A DNA stretch of 64,000 bases from Gemmatimonadaceae bacterium. Lineage in GTDB: Bacteria; Gemmatimonadota; Gemmatimonadetes; Gemmatimonadales; Gemmatimonadaceae. This document shows, in pieces, positions 28,093-44,638 of this stretch. Position 1 is the stretch's first letter. Each line of letters starts with the position of its first letter. The position numbers and the translations under genes are program-made. The notes below the pieces were generated by a model. The model was given only the letters and a program-made list of their open reading frames with translations. It searched no databases and was not told the origin of the DNA. The stretch spans positions 1,128-65,127 of the forward strand of contig JBAZTM010000008.1 in NCBI GenBank assembly GCA_041661925.1, read 5' to 3'.

Positions 28093-29286
28093 ATGAGCGC
28101 CATCCCACACGCTTGCCACTCCGCGCCGCGCCTTCGCGTGCTCGTCGTCCAGCCGTCCCTCCAGCCTCCCGGGGGCGGCAATGCCGTCGCCGCCTGGATT
28201 CTCCAGGCCTTGGCGGGCGCGCACGACATTACCGTGTGCAGTTGGCGGCCCGTCGCGCTGGAGTCGGTGAACGCCTACTACGGGACCACGCTTCGGCACG
28301 AGGACGCCACATGGCTCCCGATGCCAGCGGTGCTGCGGCTGCTCGAGGGCGTGCCCCTGCCGGTCGTGCTGCTCAAGTCGTCGCTCCTCTTTCGACGGGC
28401 AAAGAAACTCGTCGGTGATTTCGACGTTGTCATCTGCGGCCATAACGAGACGGACTTCGGGCGACGGACGCTGCAGTACATCCATTATCCGTCGCGACTC
28501 CGGCCCCGTCCGCACGCCGACCTCCGCTGGTATCACGCGTGGACCGGCGCGCTTGCTGCGTACTACGCCCTCTGTGACTGGGTTGCCGACTTCCATGCTG
28601 AACGAGTCGTGGAGGCGACGACCGTCACCAACTCAACCTGGATCGCCGGGCGCATGGTGCAGCTGTACGGCAAGGAGGCCCGCCCGCGGGTCGTTCCTCC
28701 TCCCGTGGAGATGGCGCCCTCGCCGCTCGCCTGGGACGACCGCGAGGACGGGTTCGTCTGCATCGGGCGCATCGCGCCGGAAAAGGAGTTGGAGCGCGTC
28801 ATCGGGATCCTCGCGCGTGTCCGTCAAACGCGCCCGGAAATCCGGCTCCACATCATCGGGAGCCGCGGACCTCAATGGTACGTCCGCCGGGTCGAACGCT
28901 TGGCTCGCGAGGCTGGGGATTGGGTGTACCTCCACTTCGACGTCTCCAGGTCCGACCTGGTCGGGCTCATTCACCAGAATCGCTATGCGATTCACGGCAT
29001 GAGCGAAGAACACTTCGGCATCGCGCCGGCCGAGGCGCTCCTCGGAGGAAGCATCGTCTTCGTTCCCGACGGCGGTGGCCAGGTGGACATCGTGGGGCCG
29101 GAGTACAGACTCCGCTTCGCCTCGGATGAAGAGGCGGTGGACAAGATCGTCGCCGTCCTCGGGAGCGAGCGGGACCAGGCGACGCTGCGCGCGTTCCTCC
29201 GCGACCGGGGCGCCCTGTTCACCCGTGCACGGTTCGAAGTGGCGATCCGCGGCCTCGTTGACGAGGTCTTCAGCGGACGCCAGTGA
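28093..29286 (+). CDS. GT4 glycosyltransferase, ALG11/ALG2-like
   Basis: N-terminal VVQPSLQPPGGGNAV (compare ALG11 HPYCNAGGGGERV) and C-terminal EEHFGIAPAEALLGGSIVFVPDGGGQVDIV (compare the ALG2/ALG11 EHFGI block). Its stop overlaps the lptF GTG (GTGA). Confidence 0.8.
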   Translation: MSAIPHACHSAPRLRVLVVQPSLQPPGGGNAVAAWILQALAGAHDITVCSWRPVALESVNAYYGTTLRHEDATWLPMPAVLRLLEGVPLPVVLLKSSLLFRRAKKLVGDFDVVICGHNETDFGRRTLQYIHYPSRLRPRPHADLRWYHAWTGALAAYYALCDWVADFHAERVVEATTVTNSTWIAGRMVQLYGKEARPRVVPPPVEMAPSPLAWDDREDGFVCIGRIAPEKELERVIGILARVRQTRPEIRLHIIGSRGPQWYVRRVERLAREAGDWVYLHFDVSRSDLVGLIHQNRYAIHGMSEEHFGIAPAEALLGGSIVFVPDGGGQVDIVGPEYRLRFASDEEAVDKIVAVLGSERDQATLRAFLRDRGALFTRARFEVAIRGLVDEVFSGRQ

Positions 29287-30572
29287 CGACGCTCACCCGA
29301 TACCTCCTCCGGGCGCATGTCGGCCCGTTCGCCTTCGCGTTTGCAGCCGTCACCGGCCTGCTCTTTCTCACGGCCGTCGCGCAGCGCTTCCAGGAACTGG
29401 CGGGCAAGGGAGTCGGACTGGCGGTCATCCTGGAACTCATGCTCCTCTCGCTGCCGCATGTGGTGACGCTCGCTGTTCCCATGGCTCTCTTTGCGGCTAC
29501 GCTGTACGTCTTCGCCGACCTGTCCCAGAACAGCGAACTGACCGCGATGGCAGCGGGCGGCGTGCATCCGGCGCGCCTGCTTGCCCCGCTCCTCGTCGCG
29601 GGGATCACCCTATCGCTCCTGATGGTCGTTTTTAATGATCGGATCCTGGCCGGGGCGAACGCGCGCTTTCAGGACCGGCTGGAGGACGTGGCCAGGACGA
29701 ATCCGGCGCTGCGGCTGCGGGCGGGCGTGATGAACACGCTTCGCGCTACCGACGGCTCGCTCCGCTACGTCCTCGTGCGGTCCACGGCGGCACATGGGAA
29801 CACCCTGCGTGGGGTCACTATCGCCGACTTCAGCCGACCCAATCGGCCTCGGTTCGTGACTGCCGACAGTGGTTCGGTCGCGCGGCAGCCAAACCGCCGC
29901 GACATCCTCATCCGACTTGCGGCCGGACAATTCGCGAGCCCTTTCATGGACCGGCCGGGGACGCTGCAGTTGGTCGAGTTTCAGAGCTACCTCGTGATCC
30001 TGCGTGGCCTCGCGGCGGGCGTGGAACGGGGCACGCGCGTCGGGGCGCGCGATGAGCGGGAACTCTCGATCGCCACGCTCCGCGGGAGGATTCGTGAGGC
30101 GCAGGACACCGCGCGAGCCTCCGCGTCAGGAGACGCGCGCGAGGCGTCGGCGGCCACCGCGCGAGCGCGCCGGTCCGTCGTCATCCGGAGTCGCGCCGAG
30201 CTGCATCGGCGCTATGCGACGGCTTTCGCCTGCGCCGTGTTCGTGCTTCTGGCCGCGCCGCTGGGCATTCGGTTCGCTCACGGCGGGATCGGCGCGATCA
30301 TCGCCCTCTCGGTGGCCGTCCTCTTCTTCTTCCGTGTGGGCATCATCTGGGGAGACCGTCTCTCGGATGCCGGGAGGCTCGATCCGATCGTTGGTAGTTG
30401 GACAACCGTCGGCGTGCTCCTCCTGACCGCCCTGCTGTTCCTGCGAGGTCTTGGCGGTGCTGTCTCCAACGCTCAGCGCGCACCGGAGGCAAATCGCTCG
30501 CCGCGCGGGTCACACGCGCGCCGCCGGACCCGCGTGCAGGGACGCCGAGATGGGCGAGGACTCGGAGCGTGA
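29283..30572 (+). CDS. lptF: LPS export ABC permease LptF (YjgP/YjgQ family)
   Basis: N-terminal TRYLLRAHVGPFAFAF...SELTAMAAGGV is typical of LptF/G. Contains a periplasmic beta-jellyroll insert. Confidence 0.85.
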   Translation: MTTLTRYLLRAHVGPFAFAFAAVTGLLFLTAVAQRFQELAGKGVGLAVILELMLLSLPHVVTLAVPMALFAATLYVFADLSQNSELTAMAAGGVHPARLLAPLLVAGITLSLLMVVFNDRILAGANARFQDRLEDVARTNPALRLRAGVMNTLRATDGSLRYVLVRSTAAHGNTLRGVTIADFSRPNRPRFVTADSGSVARQPNRRDILIRLAAGQFASPFMDRPGTLQLVEFQSYLVILRGLAAGVERGTRVGARDERELSIATLRGRIREAQDTARASASGDAREASAATARARRSVVIRSRAELHRRYATAFACAVFVLLAAPLGIRFAHGGIGAIIALSVAVLFFFRVGIIWGDRLSDAGRLDPIVGSWTTVGVLLLTALLFLRGLGGAVSNAQRAPEANRSPRGSHARRRTRVQGRRDGRGLGA

Positions 30573-31654
30573 TGAGACTGCGCATTCTCGACCGGTATCT
30601 CGTCGGCGCGTTCCTTCGGATCTTCGGTCTCACCGCGCTCAGCGCGCCGCTCCTGTTCATCCTAGCCGATCTCACAGGACGACTTGACGTCGAACTTGCT
30701 CGGGGGATGACGGCGGGAGACATGCTGCGATGGTATCAGGGGCAGTTCCCGATCTACCTGATCTGGGCCTTCCCCATCGCCGCGCTGGTGGCGACGCTGT
30801 TCACGCTTCAACCCCTCGCACGGCACGGGGAGATCCACGCGATGCTGGCGAGCGGAATTCGCATTCATCGGCTGTTCGCCCCTCTCCTGCTCGGTGGTGC
30901 AGTCGCTTCGCTCCTCGGACTCGTCCTCCTCGAGACGACTCCAAGGCTCGCACGCGATGCGTCGGCAGGACCGCGGGAGTCGGGGCGCGGGCGCGCCGAG
31001 CGCGTCGCCTTCGCGTACCTCACCGATGCGGGGGAGCTCCTCAGCGTCCAGCGGCTCGAGGTGGGAGCGCAGGGACGGATGTACGATCTCGTGCTCCGAT
31101 CAGCGAGCGCGAAGACGGCAGGAGCCGTGCAGTACATCGTCGCGAAGGAGGCGCGCTGGATCGAGGGGCGAGGGTGGGTGCTGCGGGACGGCCAACTCTG
31201 GAACATCGCCGCCGATGGCAATCCGGTGTGGACCTCCTTCGCGCAGCTGTCGCACCCCGCCCTCACCGAGCGACCGAGCGATCTCCTCGACGCGCCCCAG
31301 GTGGACCTCGCCGCCATGACGTTCGGCGACCTCGGACGCCTTGCCGAACGCATGGAGCGCTCCGGAGCGTCCACGGCGTTCCCGCGCACCACGCAATGGG
31401 AGCGGGTGACCATTCCATTGACCACGCTCGCGATCATCATGTTCGCGGCGCCGCTTGCGACCCGCGCGGGACGCGGGGAAGGGGAGCTGGGACTCGCACT
31501 CGCCCTCGTGCTGACCATCCTCTATCTCGCCGTGCTCCGCACCGCGGAAAGTCTTGGCTTCGCGGGACTCTTGCATCCGGGCCTCGCCGCCTCCCTTCCC
31601 GCACTGCTCTTCGGCGCGGGCGGCTGCTTCTTGCTGCGTCGTGCGCACACCTGA
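30572..31654 (+). CDS. lptG: LPS export ABC permease LptG
   Basis: MRLRILDRYLVGAFLRIFGL...GEIHAMLASGI. Its ATG overlaps the lptF stop by 1 nt (TGATG). Confidence 0.85.
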   Translation: MRLRILDRYLVGAFLRIFGLTALSAPLLFILADLTGRLDVELARGMTAGDMLRWYQGQFPIYLIWAFPIAALVATLFTLQPLARHGEIHAMLASGIRIHRLFAPLLLGGAVASLLGLVLLETTPRLARDASAGPRESGRGRAERVAFAYLTDAGELLSVQRLEVGAQGRMYDLVLRSASAKTAGAVQYIVAKEARWIEGRGWVLRDGQLWNIAADGNPVWTSFAQLSHPALTERPSDLLDAPQVDLAAMTFGDLGRLAERMERSGASTAFPRTTQWERVTIPLTTLAIIMFAAPLATRAGRGEGELGLALALVLTILYLAVLRTAESLGFAGLLHPGLAASLPALLFGAGGCFLLRRAHT

Positions 31655-31744
31655 AGTGCGAATCACCGCCTCGGGAGGACTTGATGCGGCGTCGCCGCGG
31701 CAACTCTGCGTCGTGATGCCTCGCGCATTTCCGGACGGTCAGCC

Positions 31745-33421
31745 ATGAGGCGCTTCGTCTACCTCTTCCAGGTTGAACAGGACCTGCCGGAGCATCTCGC
31801 GGAGGCCGAAGGTCCCGACAGCGAGGTGCGGTTCCTGTCGTATCGCGCGCGATCGGCCGACCGGCGAGCGCTGTACTATCCCTCGTCTTCGTGGACGCAG
31901 GGACGAAACCGCCTGCTCCGCGAGGTCGTAGACGGCGACTGGCTGTACTACGTGTTCGGCGATGCCGACGTCCACCTCGAAATCATCGGACGCAATGCGG
32001 AGCGCCAGAACCCATGGCGTGCGTTCGAGGAGTTTCTCCTCGCCCACGAGCCGGCTGTGGGAACGCCGGCGTACGCGTGGCACCTCTCGGGTCAGTGGGA
32101 TCTGACGCAGGAGACGCGAACGCTGCGTTTCTTCGACCCAGTGCTGAATGCGTTCCACCGAGAGGCGCTGCGCACGCTCCTGCCGTACTACGACCTCCTG
32201 GACGAGGAGTGCGCGGACTACTCGGGGAGCATCGTCTGCAGCCTCGCCGCCGACCTCTATGCGGGGCACGTGCTGCAGTCCAACCGCGTGCGGGTGTTGA
32301 ATCCGATCAGCCAGCGGGCGTACACGGAACGTCTGATGACGAAGCCCGAGACGCTCTACCTGGATGCAGTGCCGGATCCCAAGGACCGAGCATCGTACCG
32401 TCGGCAGCCGGAATGGAGCCAGTTGCCCCATCCTGACATGGGCGCGCCTTGTCGAAAGACGGCCTCGTACCGAAGGACGACCGAGGAACTTGCGCTGCGC
32501 TATCGGCTGGATCACCCGCTTTGGGTTCGCAAGTGCGAGTTACTGGCGATGCCGCTGGCGCACGAGTTCTACGGCGAAGGCCCGGCCAGCGCCCGTGCAC
32601 AACGGTGGCGAGCGCACGGCGCAGCAGCTGTGCCGGTGCGGGCGATGGGTGGCCTGCGGAAGCTCTGGCTGCGCACGCACGCGCTGCGAGTGCGCCTCGG
32701 ATTGGTCCGGACATCCGGACTGTTCCTGCTCGTTTACCGCATCCGGAACGTTCGGCACTCACTGCGCACCCGGCTGCAGCGTTGGCGGCGCCGGCTCCGT
32801 CGGCCGAACGAGCACGCGTTGTGGAACGCCTGGCGGACGGCCGGGCGCGCGCTCGCGGAACTCCCGGCCGGCGGTCCGGACGCCATCGATCTCATCGGTC
32901 ACGCGCTAGACCAACTGGACGATCCCGAGGTGATCTTCGTGGATGTGGGAACCGGTCGCGGCGAGGCACTCGGCCGCATTCAAGACGGCGTCTCGCAACG
33001 CAAGCGTGTGATCTCCATCGGCGTGGACCCCGTCCAGACGCGCGGCTTCACGTGGTACACGGGTTTCGTGCTGGGAACGGTAACGGATGGTGAGATGACG
33101 CTCGCGGCCATCCTCCGGCAGTACGGACTCGTCGGCCGGGTGCTGCATTGGGTGCGCATCAATCACGACGATCCCGTCACGGTCTGTCGTACACTCGGTC
33201 AGCAGTTGCAGCGCTGCCTGTTCCTCACGGTGCGATGCGCCGAAGGCGCGGCGGGTTCCGCCGCGGCCGCGGGCGCATCATGGCCGGAAGTCCGGGACAC
33301 GCTTGCGACCGATGGCTTCCGCGTGGTCGCTGTCATCGGTGGTGATTCCACGCAGCACGTGGAGGCCACGCTCATCAACGCTTCGCTCGCACAGACTCTT
33401 CTTCCCACCATCGCGTCATGA
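31745..33421 (+). CDS. Two-domain protein: uncharacterised N-terminal domain (paralogue of 38554..40443) plus a degenerate FkbM-like C-terminal domain
   Basis: The N-terminal ~210 aa align with the paralogue along their whole length (FxYLFQVEQDLP, YYPSSSWTQGRNRLL, FGDxDxxLE, NPWRxFExFLL, LRFFDxxLNAFHRE, LLPYYDLLDEE, CSLAADLYAGHV). The C-terminus has FVDVGTGRGE, but the KIDxxG block is lost (VRINHDD). Confidence 0.8.
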   Translation: MRRFVYLFQVEQDLPEHLAEAEGPDSEVRFLSYRARSADRRALYYPSSSWTQGRNRLLREVVDGDWLYYVFGDADVHLEIIGRNAERQNPWRAFEEFLLAHEPAVGTPAYAWHLSGQWDLTQETRTLRFFDPVLNAFHREALRTLLPYYDLLDEECADYSGSIVCSLAADLYAGHVLQSNRVRVLNPISQRAYTERLMTKPETLYLDAVPDPKDRASYRRQPEWSQLPHPDMGAPCRKTASYRRTTEELALRYRLDHPLWVRKCELLAMPLAHEFYGEGPASARAQRWRAHGAAAVPVRAMGGLRKLWLRTHALRVRLGLVRTSGLFLLVYRIRNVRHSLRTRLQRWRRRLRRPNEHALWNAWRTAGRALAELPAGGPDAIDLIGHALDQLDDPEVIFVDVGTGRGEALGRIQDGVSQRKRVISIGVDPVQTRGFTWYTGFVLGTVTDGEMTLAAILRQYGLVGRVLHWVRINHDDPVTVCRTLGQQLQRCLFLTVRCAEGAAGSAAAAGASWPEVRDTLATDGFRVVAVIGGDSTQHVEATLINASLAQTLLPTIAS

Positions 33422-34413
33422 AGCCCTCGCCATTCGTCGTCATCACGTCCATCGCGCCGCCCACCGACGCCGTGCGGGCGTTCGCCGAGCGCGTGGGGGA
33501 CCAGCTCATCGTGGTGGGTGACCGGAAGACGCCACCGGACTGGTCGTTGCCTCCCGTAGAGTATGTCGGCATTTCCGGGCAGGAGTCGGGCGGACGGCTC
33601 GGCACCCTGCTCCCATGGAACCATTACTGTCGCAAGATGCTCGGCTATCTCCGCGCCGCGCAGCGCGGCGCCGAGGCCATCTACGACACCGACGACGACA
33701 ACACACCAAAGCCGGCGTGGGGGATTCCGTTGTTCGAGGGTGCGTGGCAGACCAGCGCCGCCGCCCTCGGTTGGGTGAACGTGTATCGCTGGTTCACCGA
33801 CGCGCACATCTGGCCACGCGGCTTTCCATTGCGTGCCATCACCGATCCGCGTGCCGTGGTGTCGACGGACCAGACGTCGGTCTCCGCGGCACGCGTTGGC
33901 GTGTGGCAGGCCATGGCCGACGGCGATCCGGACGTGGACGCCATCTATCGATTGGTGGACGGGCGCGCATGCTTCTTCCGGGATCGCGAGCCACTTGTGT
34001 TGGGTGAAGGCACGCTTTGTCCGTTCAACTCGCAGGCGACCGCGTTCCAGCGGGCGTGCTTCCCGCTGCTCTACCTCCCGGCGAGCGTCTCGTCGCGCGT
34101 GACCGACATCCTGCGCGGTCTCGTGGCCCAACCCGTGCTCTGGGCCGCGGGGATGCGCCTCGGCTTTACCACGGCCACCGTAGTGCAGGACCGGAACCCG
34201 CACGATCTGCTGCGCGACTTCGAGGCGGAACTCCCGCTCTACCTGCGCGCCGAGGAAATCGTGGATACCGTCATCGGGGCCGTTCGCGGCGGGGCAACGC
34301 TCGAGGCAAATCTCATCGCCGCCTACTCGGCCCTGGAGCGCACGGGAGTCGTAGACGCCACAGAACCGCCTCGCGTGGAGGCTTGGCTGCACGATCTTGC
34401 CGCGTCCACATGA
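33418..34413 (+). CDS. STELLO/DUF288-like glycosyltransferase
   Basis: VVITSIAPPTDAV...VVGDRKTPPDW...LPWNHYCRKMLGYLRAAQRGAEAIYDTDDDN matches my memory of the STELLO (PF03385) N-terminal pattern. Its ATG overlaps the upstream stop (ATGA). Confidence 0.65.
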   Translation: MKPSPFVVITSIAPPTDAVRAFAERVGDQLIVVGDRKTPPDWSLPPVEYVGISGQESGGRLGTLLPWNHYCRKMLGYLRAAQRGAEAIYDTDDDNTPKPAWGIPLFEGAWQTSAAALGWVNVYRWFTDAHIWPRGFPLRAITDPRAVVSTDQTSVSAARVGVWQAMADGDPDVDAIYRLVDGRACFFRDREPLVLGEGTLCPFNSQATAFQRACFPLLYLPASVSSRVTDILRGLVAQPVLWAAGMRLGFTTATVVQDRNPHDLLRDFEAELPLYLRAEEIVDTVIGAVRGGATLEANLIAAYSALERTGVVDATEPPRVEAWLHDLAAST

Positions 34414-34442: not shown

Positions 34443-35294
34443 CTAATGCCGACCCTGTGCGATGAGAATGAACCGAGGGCATTCGGCGGCCACCGTCTCG
34501 AGAGGCCGCGGATCAATGCCCGCGTCGTTCACACTGGCGCGCCGGTAGTCGCTGTCCGGGAACGCCGCCAGCAGCTCCGTGACTGACGACGAGTAGCGTG
34601 CCAGCCACGGTCCGTGCACCTCAACCAGCACATCGACCGTTCCGGCGGCCAGCGTGGCCGTGGCGCCGCGAAACGCGGCGCCCTCGTATCCCTCGACATC
34701 CATGTAGATGACATCGGGCGCACCGTACTCCGCCGAGAGGGCATCGATGGTCAGCGCCGGCACGGCACTGCCACGGGCTCGCGCAGTCTGGATCGCGCCC
34801 GTCGTCGCGTCGTGCGTCAGGGTGCCAGCGACTGCACCCGCCGCCGCATGGCGGACGATCATCTGATCAATTCCGTTGGCGGACCGATTGACCTCGGCGA
34901 GCCCGGCATGGAACGCGTCCGCCTCGACGGCGATCACCCGGCCCGTGCGTCCCACCTCGCGAGCGAGAATCATGGCGACCACGCCTTGGTGCGCCCCGAT
35001 GTTGAACACCGTCGCTCCGGGGCGCAGCCTGCCGCTGCGCAGGATGGAAAGCTCAGGCATCGTCCAATCCTGATCATACCAACTCGATCCGACGCGGTCC
35101 CCGAGCAGCACCCGTAGCGGGTGGCCGGCGTACGTATGCTCCACCCACCGACGCGCGAACGTTCTCCGCTCCAGGGCGAGTTTGGCGATCTGCAGCCAAC
35201 GCCACCAAGCCGGGGGCAGCGAACGTCGCAACGCCTCCTTGGCAACCTGGTCGAGGTGTTGGTGCTGAGACAGCAAGGAGGCCTCCCTCATCAC
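34443..35294 (-). CDS. FkbM family methyltransferase
   Basis: VFNIGAHQGVVAM, VIAVEAD, and IYMDVEGYEGAAFRGA. Confidence 0.8.
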   Translation of the reverse strand: MMREASLLSQHQHLDQVAKEALRRSLPPAWWRWLQIAKLALERRTFARRWVEHTYAGHPLRVLLGDRVGSSWYDQDWTMPELSILRSGRLRPGATVFNIGAHQGVVAMILAREVGRTGRVIAVEADAFHAGLAEVNRSANGIDQMIVRHAAAGAVAGTLTHDATTGAIQTARARGSAVPALTIDALSAEYGAPDVIYMDVEGYEGAAFRGATATLAAGTVDVLVEVHGPWLARYSSSVTELLAAFPDSDYRRASVNDAGIDPRPLETVAAECPRFILIAQGRH

Positions 35295-35513: not shown

Positions 35514-36455
35514 ATGCGCACGATCTCACTTACCAAAGCGCTTCGCGCGTTGCGCCGCAACGCGATGCTCCATGGCCTGGCGCGGCTCGGTGAGCGCCGG
35601 AGGCGCATCCTGGCGTGGAGGGTGATGCAGGCTGCGGGCGTCAGCGAAGTCACGTTCACGCGTGATGGCCTGACGTGGCGTGTGCCTGCGGGCGACTCGC
35701 ATATCGGCTTCGGACTGTTCGTGGAAGGCGGCTTCGCGCAAGGCGCTATCGAGGTACTGCTGGCTTGGTTGCAGGCGCAGGGGCGCGCGCCCGGCCCGGA
35801 GGATGTGATCGTCGATATCGGCGCGAACATCGGCACGACGTGCATTCCGATGGTTCGCGCCTGCGGTTGCCGCGCCGTCGCGGTCGAGCCGATGCCCGAG
35901 ATCGTGGCGAGGCTTCGCGACAACGTCGATCGCAACGGGATGGCCGATCGTATCGTGCTGGTTGAGGCGGCCATCGCACGTACTGCAGGTCGAGTGGTCA
36001 TGCAAGCGGGCCATGACATCGGCGCGGCGACCGTGGTGCCGCCGCTGCATGCTGCGGCCATCAACCGCGGTGACCTGGCGGACGTCGTCGGAATGCCACT
36101 CTCCGAGCTACTGACTCGTGCTGGCGTACATCCATCCGAGGTGGCGCTCGTGTGGGCCGATGCACAGGGCTCTGAATCGGACGTCATCGAAACCGGCGAG
36201 GCACTCTGGGCACGCGGCGTGCCCCTCTGGGCGGAGTTCGAACCCGGCCTGCTGGCGCAGCATGGCGGTGTGGAGGCTTTCTTTGCGGCAACGCGCCGGC
36301 ATTTCGATCGTTTCATTGAGGCGCCGCGCCTGTTGCGCGACGGGCCGAGTGCCGCGCCGCACGACATCGCGCGACTCCCAGCGGTGCTCGCAGGCGTGCC
36401 GATTCAGACGGACGTCCTGCTGCTGTCGCCCTCGCTCAGCGCGCGCCTGCCCTGA
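35514..36455 (+). CDS. FkbM family methyltransferase
   Basis: VVDIGANIGTT, AVAVEPMPE, and VWADAQGSESDVI. The start is set at MRTISL (ATG 35514); the upstream part of ORF 35121 is antisense to the previous gene. Confidence 0.8.
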   Translation: MRTISLTKALRALRRNAMLHGLARLGERRRRILAWRVMQAAGVSEVTFTRDGLTWRVPAGDSHIGFGLFVEGGFAQGAIEVLLAWLQAQGRAPGPEDVIVDIGANIGTTCIPMVRACGCRAVAVEPMPEIVARLRDNVDRNGMADRIVLVEAAIARTAGRVVMQAGHDIGAATVVPPLHAAAINRGDLADVVGMPLSELLTRAGVHPSEVALVWADAQGSESDVIETGEALWARGVPLWAEFEPGLLAQHGGVEAFFAATRRHFDRFIEAPRLLRDGPSAAPHDIARLPAVLAGVPIQTDVLLLSPSLSARLP

Positions 36456-36551: not shown

Positions 36552-37427
36552 CTACCCAGTGATCGGCGACCGCTCGCGGAGCGGGTGGCCGTAGCCTCGC
36601 GAGTAGCGCGGTGGAGCGTAGAGAAACGACGCTCCACGCGAATGATCGGGAAAGCGATCGTCCACGAGGTCCGCCCGGACGAAGTAGGCGTTCACCCCAT
36701 TGGAGGAACAACCAACCAGCAGGTGGCCGGAACGAGCGCCGAGCTTGGCCAGCGACGAGAGCGAGGCGCTAAAGTACGCGGTGCCGCGCCAGCAGTGGTC
36801 TGGGGCATACGGCATAACCCACTCTCGCGGTGGGCGCCAGCGCGCGTTGTACTCGATCACCGTCACCCGGGGCTGGTAGGCGCTCAGGATGCGTTCCCAG
36901 ACCCAGTAATCATTCCCGTCGATGTCAATGACGAGCAGGTCGGGTGACTGCGGAACGCCGGCCGCCTCGAGCACCGAGAGCACATTCTCCGCGGTGACGC
37001 ACCTCGGGAGGATCCGCACGCCGGGGAGGTGCCGGTACAGTTGCCGCGCGTGGTCAGCCGCCGTCTCGTCCGCTTCGACCAGCACGCCGCACCATTGGTG
37101 ATGCTGCAGGAGATTTCGCGTGCAACACTCGCGGCCGTCTCCGATGCCCAACTCGACGGAGAAGCGATTGCCGTCGCCGATCCGCGTGAAGATCTCCGCA
37201 ATCGCGCCATCTTCGCCGTCCTGCGAGTAGACTCGCCGTTCGAAGCGCGAAAGCGCCGTGGGCGTCTGTCGCCGCTTCCACCGCTCCACCTCGACCAGGC
37301 GCCGTGGCGTATGAACCGCGACGTCGATCGCCCACGCCAGCGAAGCGAATCGGGCGAGGTGCCACTCCATTCGTTCAAGGAGCGTGGGCCGAGGCCATTG
37401 GCTGATCGGGGGCGTTGGTCCTGCCAT
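36552..37427 (-). CDS. FkbM-like SAM-dependent methyltransferase
   Basis: YSQDGEDGAIAEIF...VELGIGDG...VLVEAD...LLVIDIDGNDYWV. ATG 37427 is preceded by GGGAGAG. Confidence 0.65.
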   Translation of the reverse strand: MAGPTPPISQWPRPTLLERMEWHLARFASLAWAIDVAVHTPRRLVEVERWKRRQTPTALSRFERRVYSQDGEDGAIAEIFTRIGDGNRFSVELGIGDGRECCTRNLLQHHQWCGVLVEADETAADHARQLYRHLPGVRILPRCVTAENVLSVLEAAGVPQSPDLLVIDIDGNDYWVWERILSAYQPRVTVIEYNARWRPPREWVMPYAPDHCWRGTAYFSASLSSLAKLGARSGHLLVGCSSNGVNAYFVRADLVDDRFPDHSRGASFLYAPPRYSRGYGHPLRERSPITG

Positions 37428-37705: not shown

Positions 37706-38518
37706 ATGACGGGCTTTCCTCCGGTGTTTGTCATCAGCCTGTCGCGGTCCGTCGAACGACGGGCTCACATCTCTCGTCAGCTTTCCGCTCTCGGCGTGTC
37801 GTGGGAGTTCGTTGATGCCGTCGACGGGTTGGAACTTGCGGCCGAAGAACTGGATCGCGTCGTGGGTGCGTCGAACTTGGAGGTCCTCCCCGGGGTCTGG
37901 CGGCGCCTCACGCGAGGGGAGATCGGGTGCGCGCTAAGCCATCAGCGTTGCTACCGACTGATTCTCGCGCGTGACCTGCCGATGGCCTTCGTCTTTGAAG
38001 ATGACGTGGACGTCAGGTCGAGCTTCGTCGAGGTCGCGAATGCACTCGCGCGCTTCCCGGTGAACTGGGAACTGGTGCTCTTTGCGCATCACTCGGCGCG
38101 AAACGGGCCACGCGCGGGCGCCGAGACGACCTGGTACGGCGCGACCGTGCACCCGGAGCATCGCGTGCGGCGCGTGGTGGAGTTTGCCATGGGGGCGATG
38201 GCCTACCTCGTCTCCCGCGCGGGGGCACGCAAGCTCCTCACCTACGGCACGCCCGTGCGGATGCCGGCCGATTGGGTGACAGGATACGCGCCCAGTGCCG
38301 GCGTGCGGCTGCATGCCGTCACGCCGCCCGTGGTCACACCCTCCACGGCGCTGTCCCACGGCACCACGCTTCCTGATCGCGAGGCCTCGTGGGAAGCTGG
38401 GCCCGACGTTCGTCGTCAGCCGCCCATCGCGGCGGGGCTCCGCTCGTGGGGCGGCACCGGGCTGCTGTGGCTCCGGAAGGCCGGTGTGTGGCCCAGTGCG
38501 TACTCCCGGCGCTACTGA
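37706..38518 (+). CDS. GT25 family LPS/LOS glycosyltransferase
   Basis: VFVISLSRSVERRAHISRQL...FVDAVDG...GEIGCALSH...FEDDV. Confidence 0.85.
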   Translation: MTGFPPVFVISLSRSVERRAHISRQLSALGVSWEFVDAVDGLELAAEELDRVVGASNLEVLPGVWRRLTRGEIGCALSHQRCYRLILARDLPMAFVFEDDVDVRSSFVEVANALARFPVNWELVLFAHHSARNGPRAGAETTWYGATVHPEHRVRRVVEFAMGAMAYLVSRAGARKLLTYGTPVRMPADWVTGYAPSAGVRLHAVTPPVVTPSTALSHGTTLPDREASWEAGPDVRRQPPIAAGLRSWGGTGLLWLRKAGVWPSAYSRRY

Positions 38519-38553: not shown

Positions 38554-40443
38554 ATGAAGCGATTCCTCTACTTGTTCCAAGTCGAGCAGGATCTTCCGTC
38601 CGCGTTGGAGGCGGCAGCCGGTCCGGACAGCGACATTCGCTTCTTGTCCTGGCGCGCACGATCGGCGGATTCCCGGAGCATCTACTATCCATCCAGTTCC
38701 TGGACGCAGGGCCGGAACCGCCTGCTGAAGGAGGCGCTGCGACGCGATTACCTGTACGTCGTGTTTGGCGACGACGACATCACGCTTGAGTTGACGGAGC
38801 GTGGCGTCACGGCGGCCGGCCCGCAGGCGAATCCGTGGCGCGTCTTCGAGGATTTCCTGCTGACCTACGAACCCGCCGTCGGCTGCAGCATGTATTCCTG
38901 GCACCTGAGCGGCGGCGCGTACGATCCGACCCAGGACTGTCAGACGCTCCGCTTCTTCGACGCGATCCTCAACGCGTTCCACCGCGAGTCGCTTGAAGTC
39001 TTGCTCCCCTACTACGACCTCCTGGACGAGGAGACGGAGTGCTACTCCCAGAGCCTGCTCTGCAGTCTCGCCGCGGATCTGTATGCGGGACATGTGATGC
39101 AGACGAATCGCCTCATCGCCGCCAACGACAAGCGTCGCCGGACCGACCTGGCCTTCGTCCTATGCAAGCCGGAGCAGCTCTACCTGGAGTCGCTGCGTGA
39201 TGCCGAGTGGGCGCGGCGTTTTGCGCGCCAGGGCGTGGGCGACAGTGCCCGCTTTCCAACGATGGGACCACCCCGGAGGAAAACCGCATCGTTTGCGCGA
39301 ACGGACGAGGAACTGGCGCGGCACTACGACCTTTCACACCTGCTCTGGACGCGCCGGCGGGCGCTCCGCGCGCTTCCGGTCACCGATGAGTTCTACTCCG
39401 ACAGCGCGGACTCACCGCGCGCATTCCAGTGGCGCGCCGCCAGGCCACGGCCGGCGGCTCTCCCGGCGCCAGCCATCCAGTCCCGGTTCGCGCTGCCGCA
39501 CCCTTGGCGGCTGCCGGCGTGGACTCGCTCCTATTTGCAGAAACCCGCCGTCCGTGCCCATCCGCTGTTTCTGATTGCTCGGGATCTTTACCGTGGCCGT
39601 GGGCGGCCTCGTGCCATCGCCGAGGTGCTTGGCAGGATGAAGTCCCGACTCCCCGCGCGAGGTCTCTGGCGAAGGTGGTACCGAACAGCTGGGGCCATTC
39701 ACGAGATTCCCGAGGCTCGCCAGCAAGAGGTCCTGGAGCTTCTTGCGTTCGCGCTGAACGAGCTAGCTGATCCGAGCGTGGTGTTCGTGGATGTTGGTGC
39801 GGGGCGCGGCGACGTGCTGCATGCGCTCCGTTGCACGGATCTGCACAAGCGCCTCTTCGCACTCGGCATTGATCCCATCGACCTGCGTGGGCAGCCGAGT
39901 TACACCGGCTACGTGCAGGCCGCCATCACCGACGGCCCCGAGGGTCACGCGGAACTGTTCCGTTACGCCTCGAGCGACTGCAGCTCGCTGAAGCGCATGG
40001 ATCCGACGAAGGTCACGCACGACCCCGCGCTGGGAGGGGACCGCCTCTACTACACACCCACTCCCATCGAGCGTCTGGAGGAAATGGTCCGGGTGCCGAC
40101 CTTCCACCTCTCCACGATCATCCGGCAGTACGGGCTCGCGAACGACGTGCTGCATTTCGTGAAGATCGACGCGCAGGGGAGTGACCTGGACGTCTTTCGC
40201 AGCCTGGGCGAGATGAGCTCGCGGTGTCTGTTCCTCCGCATGGAAACCGTGTGTCACGAAGGAGAAGGACCGGCGCCCACCCTGTACGAAGGGCAGACGA
40301 CGTTCGCGGAAGACCGCGCGGCGCTCGAGGCGGCCGGATTCCGGCTCTTCAACATCGCGCGATTCGGTTCGACGCCGGAAGCGGACGTGACGTTCGTGAA
40401 CGTGCGGCTGTTTCGGGAGCTTCTCCCAGCCCTCGCCCGCTAG
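38554..40443 (+). CDS. Two-domain protein: uncharacterised N-terminal domain (paralogue of 31745..33421) plus an intact FkbM-type methyltransferase domain
   Basis: The N-terminus is as in the paralogue. The C-terminus has VFVDVGAGRGD ... FVKIDAQGSDLDVFRSLG. The start is set at MKRFLYLFQ (ATG 38554). Confidence 0.8.
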   Translation: MKRFLYLFQVEQDLPSALEAAAGPDSDIRFLSWRARSADSRSIYYPSSSWTQGRNRLLKEALRRDYLYVVFGDDDITLELTERGVTAAGPQANPWRVFEDFLLTYEPAVGCSMYSWHLSGGAYDPTQDCQTLRFFDAILNAFHRESLEVLLPYYDLLDEETECYSQSLLCSLAADLYAGHVMQTNRLIAANDKRRRTDLAFVLCKPEQLYLESLRDAEWARRFARQGVGDSARFPTMGPPRRKTASFARTDEELARHYDLSHLLWTRRRALRALPVTDEFYSDSADSPRAFQWRAARPRPAALPAPAIQSRFALPHPWRLPAWTRSYLQKPAVRAHPLFLIARDLYRGRGRPRAIAEVLGRMKSRLPARGLWRRWYRTAGAIHEIPEARQQEVLELLAFALNELADPSVVFVDVGAGRGDVLHALRCTDLHKRLFALGIDPIDLRGQPSYTGYVQAAITDGPEGHAELFRYASSDCSSLKRMDPTKVTHDPALGGDRLYYTPTPIERLEEMVRVPTFHLSTIIRQYGLANDVLHFVKIDAQGSDLDVFRSLGEMSSRCLFLRMETVCHEGEGPAPTLYEGQTTFAEDRAALEAAGFRLFNIARFGSTPEADVTFVNVRLFRELLPALAR

Positions 40444-41591
40444 GCGCTCCCGGTCTCCGGCTCCGGTCGCGCATCGGGCTCGTTGGGGTTTCCCCACGTC
40501 GAGTCGCCCGGGTGCCACAGGAAGGTGCGGACAAGGCCCGGCACGCACACCACCGGGATTCCCCTCCGGGCAGCCGAGGCGGGCGCACCGGTGGTGATCC
40601 AGGAGTCTTCGAGTGACGCCTCCCACCGGCGCTTCGGGGCGCCGAGGTACTCCGTGGGAATGGGGAGCACGCCCCGCCAGTAGTCCCGGTGCGCGTGAAG
40701 GTGGACGCCAGCGGTCTCGCGTTTGAGCAGCACGCGCAGTCCGCTGATCTCCCGCTCCTCTAGCACGGCGTGCTCGGCTGCATCGTAGCCTGTCAGCAAT
40801 GGGCGCAGGGCCGCGTCCTCCAACCGGTGCAGCGACTCGAGCAGATCGGCACGTACGTCCGCATCGTCCTGCACGCACGAGATCCACTGCATGTGCGAGT
40901 CAGCCAGCAGGTACGCGAGCCCCGCGTTCAGGGCCGCGCTGATCCCGCGGTTCGACGGGAGCCGGAGATACTCGGCGCCGTGCGCGCGGGTCACGCCCTG
41001 ATTGCGATGCGCCGCCGCGGTGCGGGATCCGTCGTCCACCACGAGCACGGGAGCCCCGAGTCGAACCAACTGCGGAAGCGATCGCTCCAGCGCCGCGGGG
41101 CGCTCGAAAGTGGTGACCAGAATCGCCCGGTCCTTCCAGGCGGGAACCTTGAGCGCCGGGAGGTCGTTCCCTGCATCCGTCGGCGCGAGGAGCGCATCGA
41201 GCCGAGCACGCATGCCCGGGTTGGCTTCGATGGCGGAGTCGCGACGAGATGTTCGAAAGAGGAGGTAGCGCCGGTTCTCCATCACGCGGAGGTAGTCATC
41301 GCGGAGGCCCCGAAGCAGCGCGGGGGGAAGTCCCGCCAGCGCCGCCTGCGGCACGATCACCCAAGGGAACGCGCGCACGGGGAGGTCGTCCGCCACGCCG
41401 CGCAACGGCATGAGACAACGAAGATAGGGTGCGAACTCATCGGGGCCCATGACGCGGACATCTCGCGGATCGCCATCGATGGAGTCGAGCACGGCCCGCA
41501 GGAGCCAGGCATCCATGAGGGGCCCCACGATCGTCGTGCGCCGGGCCGTCCGGGCCAAGTCCACGAAACGCCGGAAGAGCCCCTCGGTCAT
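40440..41591 (-). CDS. GT2 glycosyltransferase with an extra ~150-aa N-terminal domain
   Basis: ILVTTFERPAALERSL...VVDDGS...LPSNRGISAALNAG...QDD. Its stop shares the palindrome CTAG with the convergent gene. Confidence 0.8.
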   Translation of the reverse strand: MTEGLFRRFVDLARTARRTTIVGPLMDAWLLRAVLDSIDGDPRDVRVMGPDEFAPYLRCLMPLRGVADDLPVRAFPWVIVPQAALAGLPPALLRGLRDDYLRVMENRRYLLFRTSRRDSAIEANPGMRARLDALLAPTDAGNDLPALKVPAWKDRAILVTTFERPAALERSLPQLVRLGAPVLVVDDGSRTAAAHRNQGVTRAHGAEYLRLPSNRGISAALNAGLAYLLADSHMQWISCVQDDADVRADLLESLHRLEDAALRPLLTGYDAAEHAVLEEREISGLRVLLKRETAGVHLHAHRDYWRGVLPIPTEYLGAPKRRWEASLEDSWITTGAPASAARRGIPVVCVPGLVRTFLWHPGDSTWGNPNEPDARPEPETGSA

Positions 41592-41753
41592 GCCTGCACT
41601 CCTCCGCCTGTGACGGTCACCCGATCTGTGCGTACGCATGCGCGTCGCGTCCTCGGCAACCTATCCCGCGCCCTGCGGGGCCACAACGTCCGGCGCCGCC
41701 CGCGGCATGAACGGCGCGGCGAACGGACATCACGCGAAATCCCCTTCCAACGC

Positions 41754-41783: not shown

Positions 41784-41909
41784 GGATCTGCAGTCTGGCG
41801 GGATTCACGCCCCTCGTTCACCGTCGGCACGGCACCGCTGGTGCGCTGCAGCCAGTTTTGTTCGCCGAGTCCACCGCCGCCGAGTCCCGAGGGACGCCGT
41901 CACCATCCG

Positions 41910-43721
41910 ATGATCTCGACACTCAAGAAGTGCATCGGCATGGTCCCGCGCGAGCTTCGCACGGGGTGGCTCGGATTGCCATTCCTCGGCCTGCTTGCCG
42001 GGGCCCTGGAAGGTGGCCAGGCCGGCGCCATCTACCTCCTCATCCGCCTGATGGGTGAACCGCGCGCGATCTTCGAGTTCACCAAGTGGCCGGCGCTGCG
42101 ACGGGTGTTCGAGGGCGCGACCGACATCGGAATTATCCTGCGCTTCGCGGCGCTGCTGGCCGTCTACCACGTCGTGAAGAACCTCATCGTCATCGGCTCG
42201 CACTACCGTCGGCAGAACATCCTCGCCGGCACGAATGCCGCGCTCTCGAGCGCGTTGTTCCGCGGGTACCTGCTGGTGCCGCTCCCCTTTCACTTCCGCA
42301 GGCACTCGGCGGAACTGGTGCGCAACACCACGCACGCGGTGGCGGCCGCGGTGGCCGTCCTGGAGGCATTTGACGGTCTCATCCGCCGCGGCTTCACGGT
42401 GGTGAGCCTGACCGTCGTACTCATTGCCACCTCACCCACCGCGGCGCTCGGCTCGGGTGTCGCCCTGGCCCTGCTGGTCACCGGCCTGCTTCGCCTGACC
42501 CGGGCGATGGCCGAACGGGGCGGCAGCGCCCAGCATGAGTTGGGCCAGAGCCTTCAGCAGACGATACAGAACGCCCTCGGCGGCATCCGGGAAATCAAGG
42601 CGCTGGGACGCGAGCCTTACTTCTACAGGACCTTCTCCGATGTGCAGCGGCAGATTTTGGAGCTCGGGCACCTGAACGTGACACTGAGCGTGATTCCCCA
42701 GGTGATGTTCGAGACGGCCTTCGTGCTCGCCGCGCTGGTGGCGGCGGTGCTTCTGGCCACCCAACCCTCGGCCTCGACCACGGCGCTGCCGGTGATGGGC
42801 CTCCTCGGGTATGCCGGGTTTCGCATGATCGTCATGGCGAATCCCATCATCACGACGATCAACCAGATCCGGGCCGCGCGGGCGCCGGTGGATGCCCTGC
42901 ACGAGGATTTCCTCCTCATTCGTCGCGAGACGGCGTCCCTCGACATGGCCGGAGAGTCGCCCGTGACGCTGCGCTCCGAGATGGTGCTGGAGGGCGTGAG
43001 CTACAGCTATCCCGCCGCTTCCCGGCCGGCCCTGACCGACGCGTCGATGCGGCTGAAGGTGGGAGAGGCCATCGGTGTAGTGGGCCCCACGGGCGCCGGG
43101 AAGAGCACCCTCGTCGACCTGATCGTCGGGCTGCTCATTCCGGCGACGGGACGAGTGCTCGTTGACGGCGTGGATGTGACCCGGAACCCCATGCGCTGGC
43201 GGCAGAAGATTGGATACGTGCCGCAGTCGATTTTTCTCCTCGATGATACGCTGCGGCGGAACGTCGCCATGGGAATTCCGGACGACGAGATTGAGGAGCA
43301 GGCTGTGGTGCGGGCCATCCAGATGGCACAGCTCGACCGGCTGGTCGACGCCTGGCCGGAGGGACTGAGCACCGTCCTTGGCGAGCGCGGCATCCGCCTC
43401 TCTGGCGGGGAGCGGCAGCGCGTGGGGATCGCCCGGGCACTCTATCACGATCCCGACCTCCTGGTCTTCGACGAGGCCACGGCCGCGTTGGACGGCGTCA
43501 CGGAGGCCGAAGTCACCCGGTCCATCCACGCGCTCCGGGGACGGAAGTCCATGCTCGTCATCGCTCACCGCCTGAGCACGGTGCGGGCGTGCGACCGACT
43601 GCTGTACCTCGAAGACGGGCGGATCGTGGCGCAGGCGAGCTACGATGACCTGCTCGCCTCGAACGACCGTTTCCGACTCATGGCTGCCGCGTCGGGAGCG
43701 CAGCCGCACGTGGTGAGCTGA
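41910..43721 (+). CDS. ABC exporter, fused TMD-NBD (MsbA/PglK-like candidate lipid-linked glycan flippase)
   Basis: Six TM segments, Walker A GPTGAGKST, signature LSGGERQRVGIARAL and Walker B LLVFDEAT. The N-terminal 380 aa of ORF 40770 are antisense shadow. Confidence 0.9.
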   Translation: MISTLKKCIGMVPRELRTGWLGLPFLGLLAGALEGGQAGAIYLLIRLMGEPRAIFEFTKWPALRRVFEGATDIGIILRFAALLAVYHVVKNLIVIGSHYRRQNILAGTNAALSSALFRGYLLVPLPFHFRRHSAELVRNTTHAVAAAVAVLEAFDGLIRRGFTVVSLTVVLIATSPTAALGSGVALALLVTGLLRLTRAMAERGGSAQHELGQSLQQTIQNALGGIREIKALGREPYFYRTFSDVQRQILELGHLNVTLSVIPQVMFETAFVLAALVAAVLLATQPSASTTALPVMGLLGYAGFRMIVMANPIITTINQIRAARAPVDALHEDFLLIRRETASLDMAGESPVTLRSEMVLEGVSYSYPAASRPALTDASMRLKVGEAIGVVGPTGAGKSTLVDLIVGLLIPATGRVLVDGVDVTRNPMRWRQKIGYVPQSIFLLDDTLRRNVAMGIPDDEIEEQAVVRAIQMAQLDRLVDAWPEGLSTVLGERGIRLSGGERQRVGIARALYHDPDLLVFDEATAALDGVTEAEVTRSIHALRGRKSMLVIAHRLSTVRACDRLLYLEDGRIVAQASYDDLLASNDRFRLMAAASGAQPHVVS

Positions 43722-43762
43722 GTCCCCGTCCGTCCGCTGCATCACTCGCTTTCGAGAGGCCA

Positions 43763-44638
43763 ATGCGAGTCTCCGGATTCACCATCGCCCGACGGGCGGT
43801 CGCACTGGGTTATCCGCTCGCCGAGTCGCTGCGGTCGCTCCTGCCGCTCGTGGACCAGCTCGTCGTCAACGTGGGTGACGGCGACGACGGTACCTGGGAA
43901 ACGGTGCAGGCGCTCGCCGATCCACGAATCGTCGCCTTTCGCAGCACGTGGGACCTGTCCAAGCGCGACGGGTTGACGCTCTCCGAGGAGACCAACAAGG
44001 CGCTCGCCCGATGCGACGGCGACTGGGCGATTTACCTGCAAGCGGATGAGGTGTTGCACGAAGCGGAGGGGCCGGCCCTGCGGGCGGCGCTGCAGCGCCA
44101 CCTCCACTCGCGGGTCGAGGCGCTCAGCCTGCGCTACTACCATTTCTACGGATCGTATCGCACGTACAAGGACGATCCGAGGTGGTGGTATCCGAGGGCG
44201 ACCCGCATCGTCCGAACGGGCATGGACGTCCAGTCCGTCGGGGATGCCTGCGCGTTCATGCGCCGACACGACGGTGCTTGGCGGAAACCGAGGCGGCGTG
44301 ACCTCACGATGCACGTCTACCATTACGGCAGGGTCCGGCCGCCGGCACAGATGCTGCTCAAGCAGCGGAATCTCGAACGCCTGTACCACGACGAATCTTG
44401 GTTGGAGACGCACGGTCTCCCCGCCGACATGGATCTTGCGGCGATCTATGGTGATTCGCGCCACCTGCGCGTGTTTCACGGAACGCATCCCGCGGTCATG
44501 CACGACCGGGTTGCGTCCGTGGACTGGCCGGAGCCACCGCTCGTGGCCGGTCCGTGGCCGGAGTGGATGCGGCGCGGCTACGTGTATGGCGCGTGGGTGA
44601 TCGATCGCGGCGTGGCGGCGCTCCGGGCGCGGCAATGA
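43763..44638 (+). CDS. GT2-like glycosyltransferase
   Basis: VSGFTIARRAVALGYPLAESLRSLLPLVDQLVVNVGDGDDGT...YLQADEV. This is a GT-A fold with DxD-like motifs. Confidence 0.7.
   Translation: MRVSGFTIARRAVALGYPLAESLRSLLPLVDQLVVNVGDGDDGTWETVQALADPRIVAFRSTWDLSKRDGLTLSEETNKALARCDGDWAIYLQADEVLHEAEGPALRAALQRHLHSRVEALSLRYYHFYGSYRTYKDDPRWWYPRATRIVRTGMDVQSVGDACAFMRRHDGAWRKPRRRDLTMHVYHYGRVRPPAQMLLKQRNLERLYHDESWLETHGLPADMDLAAIYGDSRHLRVFHGTHPAVMHDRVASVDWPEPPLVAGPWPEWMRRGYVYGAWVIDRGVAALRARQ

Follow-up and report, generated by a model that had tools for sequence, protein, structure and literature searches.

In Escherichia coli O8 and O9a, the O-polysaccharide depends on an ATP-binding cassette (ABC) transporter (Wzm/Wzt), and WbdD adds a chain-terminating methyl group. 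The O-antigen of Helicobacter pylori follows a WecA-Wzk-WaaL route (Hug et al. 2010, PMC2841628), and in Proteobacteria the canonical lptFG pair, which encodes the lipopolysaccharide (LPS) export permeases, is a two-gene locus apart from lptCAB (PMC8871954). We analyzed a 64-kb stretch of DNA (hereafter the window; G+C content 67%) from an uncultured Gemmatimonadaceae bacterium (contig JBAZTM010000008.1), in which lptF and lptG were found in the middle of a glycan locus of about 21 kb (positions 23500-44638). The best explanation of this region is a lineage-specific envelope-glycan locus in which lptF and lptG became part of a glycosyltransferase (GT) operon. Every component family, as well as the Wzk/PglK-type O-antigen route, is already known. 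New are the conserved insertion of lptFG into a glycan operon, the density of FkbM domains, a GT-A/FkbM fusion built on a domain family without a model, and the alternation between an oligosaccharyltransferase (OST) and LptFG in related clusters.

The pathway proposed for this locus shares with that of H. pylori the WecA-type initiation, a cytoplasmic extension that includes fucosylation, and the lack of both Wzx/Wzy and Wzm/Wzt; in both, a fused PglK-like ABC half-transporter is the sole candidate flippase, and both have an evolutionary link to N-glycosylation. The H. pylori genes, however, are scattered and its lptFG are unlinked, whereas here a single locus carries lptFG in its middle together with many FkbM methyltransferase genes, no WaaL was found in the window, and the exporter is too divergent to be classed as a Wzk or PglK orthologue (235 bits against a cut-off of 1000). 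The Campylobacter jejuni pgl system (PglK and PglB) and the archaeal and eukaryotic pathways with Alg7, Alg13/14, Alg1, Alg2/11 and AglB/STT3 resemble the locus in their polyprenol-phosphate sugar-phosphate transferase, MurG/Alg13-14-like GT28, GT4 enzymes and ABC flippase, and two relatives of the locus (L093 and L094, below) carry an AglB/STT3-type enzyme. They differ in that the window and the loci of its clade have no OST, and lptF and lptG stand in the equivalent position. As in E. coli O8/O9a, the glycan would be completed and methylated in the cytoplasm before ABC export, and methyltransferase domains are fused to other catalytic domains; unlike that system, the locus has neither a Wzm/Wzt pair nor a WbdD-type kinase or coiled-coil, its exporter is a fused half-transporter of type IV (MsbA/PglK fold), and the methyltransferases are of the FkbM type. 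With the proteobacterial lptFG the pair has in common that the two paralogues are neighbours, that the stop codon of one overlaps the start codon of the other, and that both match PF03739 over its full length; the pair differs in being flanked by, and translationally coupled to, glycosyltransferase genes.

Genuine genes were told apart from spurious open reading frames (ORFs) by the G+C content at the codon positions and by hidden Markov model (HMM) searches, and 46 ORFs of the window were scanned with Pfam. The two permease genes, lptF (29283..30572, + strand) and lptG (30572..31654, + strand), are adjacent paralogues that matched PF03739 over its full length and above its cut-off of 27.9 bits (231.7 bits at profile positions 1-351 of 353 for lptF; 153.9 bits at positions 1-353 of 353 for lptG). 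Both missed the NCBIfam equivalog cut-offs (LptF, TIGR04407, 158.9 bits against 230; LptG, TIGR04408, 138.5 bits against 240); nevertheless, the best match was the right one for each gene. Directly upstream, the gene for the glycosyltransferase GT4b (28093..29286, + strand; PF00534, Glycos_transf_1, 59.2 bits) ends in a TGA codon at 29284-29286 that overlaps the GTG start of lptF at 29283, giving the GTGA at 29283-29286. The stop codon of lptF (TGA, 30570-30572) and the start codon of lptG (ATG, 30572-30574) overlap by 1 nt in the TGATG at 30570-30574. Independent gene callers chose identical starts for lptF and lptG on three metagenome contigs. A gap of 90 nt (31655-31744) separates lptG from the next gene, paralogue A, which is itself coupled to a STELLO-like gene through an ATGA. 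A preliminary description of this DNA had quoted these junctions, along with a CTAG stop common to two convergent genes and a 3-nt spacer between two others; all of them were present in the sequence, and the translational coupling of lptFG to the GT4 gene that it drew from them was seen here and, as a GT stop overlapping the lptF start, in most of the related genomes. Its proposal that the glycosyltransferase and permease genes form one operon could be kept in part. Since the locus uses both strands and contains a number of divergent and of convergent gene pairs, with at least seven likely transcription units, a common operon is possible for GT4b-lptF-lptG, perhaps together with paralogue A and the STELLO-like gene, and does not extend to the locus as a whole.

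The position of lptFG is conserved. An LptF search of genome contigs gave one related genome, and the wider synteny was drawn from other searches. Seven distinct genomes with an LptF at least 56% identical were treated as the clade (the window, L001/L088, L005, L089, L090, L091 and L092); their loci span at most 10 kb on each side of the anchor gene, and often less. In all seven, lptFG were located between glycan genes, and GT28 and GT4a, the two genes that open the locus in the window, were upstream of lptFG in six. A glycosyltransferase stop codon overlapped the lptF start in six of the seven genomes, that of GT4b in five and that of GT4a in L005; the GT4b/lptF overlap is 4 nt in L088, L089 and L090 and 10 nt in L091. 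On the other side, an orthologue of GT2b is directly 3' of lptG in three genomes (L001/L088, L091 and L092), with a 1-nt overlap in two and a gap of about 30 nt in one. An orthologous ABC exporter (44-55% identity over the full length) was found near lptFG in the four loci whose contigs were long enough. Full-length homologues of the exporter stand beside lptFG in L005, L089 and L092, and in L005, where the order is GT28, GT4a, lptF, lptG, ABC, the exporter follows lptG immediately. The FkbM genes, GT25, GT61, GT17 and paralogues A and B with the STELLO-like gene varied among the clade loci, and such variable glycosyltransferase and FkbM content is typical of O-antigen-like loci.

For comparison, 82 lptFG loci from other Gemmatimonadota, with LptFs at most 42% identical, were collected as an out-group; 43 of them had at least 3 kb of flank, and the flanks totalled 505 kb. 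No homologue of a cluster gene was detected at these 82 loci (tblastn, E<1e-3), except for one fragment of a nucleotide-binding domain (NBD) 10 kb away. Where gene calls were available, the neighbours of the out-group lptFG were genes for SprA of the type IX secretion system (T9SS), for T2SSE or for diaminopimelate (DAP) epimerase. The earlier view that lptFG within a glycan cluster is atypical thus agrees with the count of 0/82. Because the arrangement was present in 7/7 clade genomes and in none of the 82 other loci, we regard the placement as a derived, clade-specific and conserved feature and the adjacency as going beyond chance. An attempt to establish positional orthology through the M28 peptidase was dropped, as the peptidases here and near lptFG in L007 were not detectably related by tblastn.

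The clade LptFs have 376-430 aa, compared with 470-570 aa in most of the other Gemmatimonadota LptFs retrieved, although one out-group cluster also has about 432 aa; they are 24-46% identical to the LptFs of other Gemmatimonadota, and those groups are 37-59% identical among themselves. The short length and divergence, the scores of both proteins below the equivalog cut-offs and the fixed link to GT28, GT4 and ABC genes within the clade would suit LptFG that act as a specialised extractor of a non-LPS glycolipid, made by GT28/GT4 and flipped by the ABC exporter, with an ordinary second lptFG possibly located elsewhere; the locus would in that case make, flip and extract its product as a self-contained module. 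For Thermotoga, a role of LptF/G-like proteins in moving other lipids has been proposed (PMC10160955). We give this explanation only a slim chance. The divergence lies within the range between other Gemmatimonadota groups, the PF03739 matches are full length, and the LptF and LptG models picked out the two genes in the right order. No second LptF of the same metagenome-assembled genome (MAG) was present among the 120 best profile matches, where the named proteins had accession numbers of other MAGs; this is a weak negative. Since the clade LptF diverges no more than the other Gemmatimonadota groups do from each other, the sequence comparison is more in keeping with orthology than with an additional paralogue.

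The pathway we favour, with about an even chance of being correct, leads to a polyprenol-linked, fucosylated and O-methylated glycan; after flipping by the ABC exporter, this glycan would be ligated to lipid A-core, and LptB2FG would extract the product. A WecA-type phosphotransferase would prime polyprenyl phosphate, and the chain would be extended on the cytoplasmic face by GT28, two GT4 enzymes, two GT2 enzymes, one GT25, the STELLO-like protein and the GT-A domains of paralogues A and B. Fucose would enter the chain from GDP-fucose made by Fcl, and three to five FkbM-type methyltransferase domains would O-methylate the sugars. The dedicated fused ABC exporter would then flip the lipid-linked glycan, as Wzk does in H. 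pylori and PglK in Campylobacter, a WaaL-type ligase encoded elsewhere would join it to lipid A-core, and LptB2FG, with permeases co-translated with GT4b, would extract the finished LPS. The WecA-Wzk-WaaL route of H. pylori provides an experimental precedent (PMC2841628), and the Gemmatimonadota, the phylum of the window organism, are counted as true LPS diderms (PMC8871954). Our literature search returned nothing specific on Gemmatimonas LPS, on lptFG in glycan clusters or on OSTs in Gemmatimonadetes. The data show the gene content, overlaps and conservation, the predicted fold of the new domain and the distinctness of the two ABC exporters of the window (below); the lipid carrier, the methylation of sugars, the flipping by this ABC exporter and, above all, the LPS end-point are what we infer, because no WaaL or lpx genes are present in the window. 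LPS as the end product is favoured by the fixed coupling to lptFG.

A different end-point was suggested by two clusters outside the clade. Homologues of paralogue B (55-57% identical) occur in L093 and L094, one from an ENA metagenome and one from assembly GCA_038231575.1, both with a G+C content of 0.63-0.65. The gene order in the two is two GT4 genes on the opposite strand, GT28, an AglB/STT3-type OST, an ABC exporter that is 41-42% identical to that of the window cluster over the full length, and paralogue B; L093 also has a STELLO-like gene (62% identical) nearby. The L093 OST (5741-8182, 813 aa) passed the cut-offs of both PF18079 (AglB_L1, 46.9 bits) and PF02516 (STT3, 40.2 bits), and in the alignment with Archaeoglobus AglB its 'TDWCDG' stretch falls on the WWDYG motif. 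The L094 OST (5067-7562, 831 aa), which also carries the TDWCDG variant, matched PF18079 as its sole family, with 54.6 bits. There is no lptFG in the L093 and L094 loci, and conversely tblastn found no OST homologue in the window or in any clade locus. In L005, lptFG occupy the position that the OST holds in L093 and L094, between GT28/GT4 and the ABC exporter; neither this nor the GT-A domain of both paralogues had been recognized in the preliminary description. L093 and L094 may belong to an N-glycosylation system of bacteria that employs Alg-like enzymes. Between the lptFG-type and the OST-type clusters, the identity of GT28 and of GT4a is only 33-35%, which makes them uncertain orthologues across the two cluster types.

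Because homologous ABC, paralogue B and STELLO-like genes flank the OST, the shared module would act on a polyprenol-linked glycan that is flipped before transfer en bloc. This brings in the possibility that the window locus also makes something other than LPS, i.e., that its product serves protein N- or O-glycosylation or another surface polymer through an enzyme encoded elsewhere, and that lptFG share only the neighbourhood and perhaps the regulation. The closest modules outside the clade indeed adjoin an OST and are without lptFG, no WaaL lies in the window, and the WecA-type transferase, the MurG-like GT28 and a GT4 to which JGI gave the name beta-1,4-mannosyltransferase recall a lipid-linked oligosaccharide pathway. 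We nevertheless consider a non-LPS product unlikely, since the window and the clade loci lack an OST homologue and lptFG themselves hold the place of the OST, and mere hitch-hiking explains poorly why a glycosyltransferase gene overlaps lptF in six of seven genomes and lptG leads into GT2b in three. A broader idea, against which the chances clearly lie, is that a single module for assembling and flipping lipid-linked oligosaccharides (the MurG/Alg13-14-like GT28, GT4 enzymes, a PglK-like ABC exporter, the GT-A/FkbM bifunctional enzyme and its STELLO-like partner) is coupled to AglB/STT3 in some bacteria and to LptFG in this clade. The end-point would then have switched naturally from protein N-glycosylation to LPS or, alternatively, the locus would be a make-flip-extract module devoted to a heavily O-methylated glycolipid, its extractor being co-translated with the glycosyltransferases.

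These bacterial glycan loci also include glycosyltransferase families found mostly in eukaryotes (L005 1-3526, L093 13148-15886 and L092 9667-11709). The L005 segment encodes GT17 (GnT-III-like) and GT61, and the L093 segment a protein of 912 aa with GT2, GT7 (beta-4-galactosyltransferase-like) and GT61 domains.

The conserved locus of the window begins at 23500 and not at 29283, where the preliminary description had placed its start; GT28, GT4a, the WecA/MraY-family transferase, the GDP-L-fucose synthase and GT4b were added to it. Its first gene, the MurG-like GT28 (23500..24642, + strand), matched PF04101 (109.7 bits) and PF03033 (73.6 bits), scored 238.9 bits with TIGR01133 (murG), just below the cut-off of 250.25, bears the PGAP name MurG and aligned over its full length to Pseudomonas aeruginosa MurG (3s2u, E 2.6e-45). 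It has FEAN at the position of the HEQN motif of MurG. It adjoins glycan genes, not ftsW or murC, and was the sole MurG-like gene seen, outside the dcw context. It may be a relocated housekeeping murG or a paralogue with an Alg13/14-like role. GT4a (24652..25842, + strand; Glyco_trans_4_4, 59.3 bits) starts 9 nt after GT28; it is the GT4 for which the mannosyltransferase assignment exists as a JGI name only. It is 59-72% identical in the clade loci and lies immediately 5' of lptF in L005. Sequence searches of the PDB with GT4a and GT4b found no useful relatives, so that the labels Alg1-like and Alg11-like, the latter used for GT4b in the preliminary description, are tentative. On the reverse strand follow the WecA/MraY-family polyprenyl-phosphate N-acetylhexosamine-1-phosphate transferase, the putative initiating enzyme (25846..26904; PF00953, 123.9 bits; TIGR02380 wecA, 119.8 bits, below the equivalog cut-off), and the GDP-L-fucose synthase Fcl (27054..28034; NF047922, 501.3 bits against a cut-off of 500), the start codon of which is uncertain (27932, 27992 or 28034, depending on the gene call).

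The remaining glycosyltransferase genes lie downstream of lptFG. GT25 (37706..38518, + strand; PF01755, 106.2 bits) belongs to a family of the lipooligosaccharide (LOS)/LPS type, and the two GT2 genes are GT2a (40440..41639, - strand; PF00535, 35.6 bits), which has its CTAG stop in common with paralogue B, and the GT2-like GT2b (43763..44638, + strand; PF13704, 27.7 bits; PF00535, 24.1 bits). Together with the fused ABC exporter (41910..43721, + strand), which has both a transmembrane domain (TMD; PF00664, 32.1 bits) and an NBD (PF00005, 101.9 bits), these genes had been named in the preliminary description, and Pfam confirmed them. The absence of Wzx/Wzy/Wzz and of a Wzm/Wzt pair that it reported also held, as none of the Wzx, Wzy, Wzz, Wzm, Wzt, WaaL or OST families was matched among the scanned ORFs of the window. 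The exporter is our candidate for the flippase of the lipid-linked glycan.

A second fused ABC exporter is encoded in the window outside the locus (50972-52783, - strand). It scored 457.6 bits with the MsbA model (TIGR02203, cut-off 602 bits), matched Sav1866, BmrA and MsbA at 305-337 bits and carries the JGI name MsbA; a GDPD phosphodiesterase gene overlaps its 5' end. The cluster exporter scored 256.2 bits with the same model, and the best solved half-transporter for it was PglK (217 bits), with no MsbA chain among the 60 best PDB matches, of which the lowest scored 184.6 bits. The two exporters of the window align in the NBD only (38% identity over 291 residues). The cluster exporter was therefore rejected as the first-choice MsbA. 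Because the alignment is confined to the NBD, we consider the cluster exporter to belong, on its sequence, to a separate lineage that travels with the glycan module. Export through 41910..43721, as presumed earlier, is supported in that this protein is a plausible flippase with an orthologue near lptFG in four clade genomes; the better MsbA candidate of the window is the other exporter.

These genes could also work in a LOS-type manner, with GT28, GT4 and GT25 building directly on lipid A-core in the cytoplasm and the cluster exporter acting as a specialised MsbA-like flippase ahead of LptB2FG. The family of GT25, the tight co-directional core of GT28, GT4a, GT4b, lptF and lptG, the slightly higher score of the exporter with the MsbA than with the PglK HMM (256 against 235 bits) and the missing initiating phosphotransferase at the loci of L005, L089, L090 and L091 are all in line with such a mechanism. 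We think it rather improbable, however: the resemblance of GT28 to MurG extends over the entire protein and indicates a polyprenyl-diphosphate acceptor, a homologous exporter beside the OST in L093 and L094 implies a polyprenol-linked substrate, the better MsbA candidate is at 50972-52783, and a WecA-type gene is present in the window locus and in L088.

Several observations weigh against the favoured polyprenol-linked route to LPS. An initiating phosphotransferase is present in L001/L088 and absent within 10 kb of lptFG in L005, L089, L090 and L091. WaaL, lpx, kdo, lptB, lptC, lptA and lptD are absent from the 64-kb window and from the clade loci. The cluster exporter reached no curated cut-off, and its scores with HepA (274 bits), MsbA and PglK (NF050066) are close together. 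GT25 enzymes usually act directly on lipid A-core and not on a polyprenol carrier. Finally, a scan of 23000-42900 gave 0 promoter-like and 8 terminator-like sites, which is the level of shuffled sequence and uninformative; since these scans were at chance level, the operon structure is read from gene spacing.

Paralogues A and B were found to be predicted two-domain proteins. Paralogue A (31745..33421, + strand; no Pfam or NCBIfam match) has a GT-A-like N-terminal domain and a shortened FkbM-related C-terminal domain; paralogue B (38554..40443, + strand) has a GT-A-like domain at about residues 1-290 and an FkbM domain at about residues 400-629 (PF05050, 30.2 bits). They are 40% identical over the full length (BLASTP), with paralogue A lacking about 70 residues of the methyltransferase domain. 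Since the short form is common to all A-type orthologues and the glycine-rich S-adenosylmethionine (SAM) motif is kept in at least 90% of the A- and B-type proteins, the C-terminus of paralogue A is a conserved divergent domain and not a decayed one. The first 290 residues of A and B had no Pfam match even at E values up to 1. AlphaFold models of paralogue B built with the family alignment were confident, with a pLDDT of 87.7 (full length) and of 84.9 (N-terminal domain alone). When the N-terminal domain model was compared with the PDB by Foldseek, almost all of the 50 matches listed were GT-A glycosyltransferases (probability 0.96-1.0, E from 2e-5), among them chondroitin synthase, the GT domain of LH3, TarP, RmlT, GnT-I, SpsA and TarS; the C-terminal domain matched class I SAM methyltransferases. 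D74xD76, H144, E146 and D159 are invariant in 41 sequences. The N-terminal domain of both proteins is thus predicted to be a glycosyltransferase domain of the GT-A fold with a DxD metal-binding motif, and paralogue B is best described as a predicted bifunctional glycosyltransferase and O-methyltransferase.

The GT-A-like domains (31745-32620 in A and 38554-39420 in B, both + strand) have no Pfam model and are a candidate new glycosyltransferase family. When 1.84 billion proteins were searched with a profile built from it, 1,229 cluster representatives were retrieved, of which 745 had E<=1e-10. Stand-alone proteins of 250-300 residues are frequent among them, and in some proteins the domain is fused to STELLO-like, sulfotransferase, FkbM or TPR domains. 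The neighbour of paralogue A, a STELLO-like putative glycosyltransferase (33418..34413, + strand), scored 26.5 bits with PF03385, just under the cut-off of 27.8; its assignment in the preliminary description therefore narrowly missed the threshold, whereas the orthologue in L088 is a recorded PF03385 match. The ATGA at 33418-33421 couples paralogue A to this gene, fusions of a paralogue-A-type protein with STELLO exist (P0035, P0135, P0172 and P0183), and the pair is found free-standing elsewhere, with a 4-nt overlap, on contigs carrying P0040. Because of this coupling, the fusions and the free-standing overlapping pair, we regard paralogue A as functionally tied to the STELLO-like gene. On the P0040 contigs the pair adjoins the gene of a large outer-membrane beta-barrel, and on one of them a series of radical-SAM and PqqD genes lies upstream of it.

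Sugar O-methyltransferases of the FkbM family (PF05050) include NoeI of rhizobia and RfbT of Vibrio cholerae. The genes described here resemble them in having SAM-dependent FkbM domains within glycan clusters, and they recall the formation of 2-O-methylfucose by NoeI in that the window locus also has a fucose-forming enzyme; they differ in their unusually high copy number and in the fusion of two of them to the new GT-A-like domain. The cut-offs were 22.7 bits for PF05050 and 37.7 bits for TIGR01444. Both were passed by methyltransferase 1 (34443..35294, - strand; 47.2 and 70.4 bits, respectively) and methyltransferase 2 (35514..36455, + strand; 37.1 and 72.5 bits). The C-terminus of paralogue B passed with PF05050 and scored only 26.0 bits with TIGR01444. 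A possible third FkbM-related methyltransferase (36552..37427, - strand) is an accessory gene with 20.6 bits for PF05050, below the cut-off, and no NCBIfam match; it is missing from L001/L088. Of the five FkbM domains counted in the preliminary description, three are hence firm, whereas the gene at 36552-37427 is borderline and paralogue A, which had no HMM match, is divergent. An extensively O-methylated glycan is a reasonable inference from these gene assignments, and FkbM genes have been reported within O-antigen clusters (PMC10888714).

The locus is bordered upstream by an M28 peptidase gene (22151-23413) and downstream by a major facilitator superfamily (MFS) transporter gene (44759-46021). 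The convergent pair GT4a and the WecA/MraY-family transferase is separated by the 3-nt spacer at 25843-25845, and the CTAG common to paralogue B and GT2a is at 40440-40443. The G+C content at third codon positions (GC3) of the locus genes, lptF and lptG included, averaged 0.80 compared with 0.87 in the flanks (Mann-Whitney p = 9e-6). A recently acquired horizontal island was considered and dismissed, as the locus, including lptFG, is syntenic across the clade and its flanks are conserved; despite the low GC3, synteny with L088 covers the locus and also its upstream flank. Given this clade-wide synteny, the locus looks like an old and fast-evolving one rather than a recent insertion. No tRNA genes, as markers of an island, were found in the window. 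The convergent genes 35514-36455 and 36552-37427 are 96 nt apart, and this spacer holds a tandem repeat of a 10-nt unit at 36475-36526 (GGCGGCGTCC; 5.2 copies, 85% matches).

As a rule, the Lpt export machine is encoded away from the genes of LPS synthesis. The fixation of lptFG in an otherwise variable glycan locus, to which they are translationally coupled, suggests that extractor and cargo are produced in a coordinated manner, and it makes the clade a natural system for asking if LptFG co-evolve with the glycan that they carry. The AglB/STT3-type enzyme found in the same place in related clusters offers a concrete case in which the evolutionary connection proposed for O-antigen assembly and protein N-glycosylation can be tested. 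The analysis also defines a widespread glycosyltransferase-like domain that has no Pfam model and recurs in fusions with STELLO-like, FkbM and sulfotransferase domains. For the Gemmatimonadaceae, a common but little-studied soil lineage, the locus predicts envelope glycans that contain fucose and are O-methylated.

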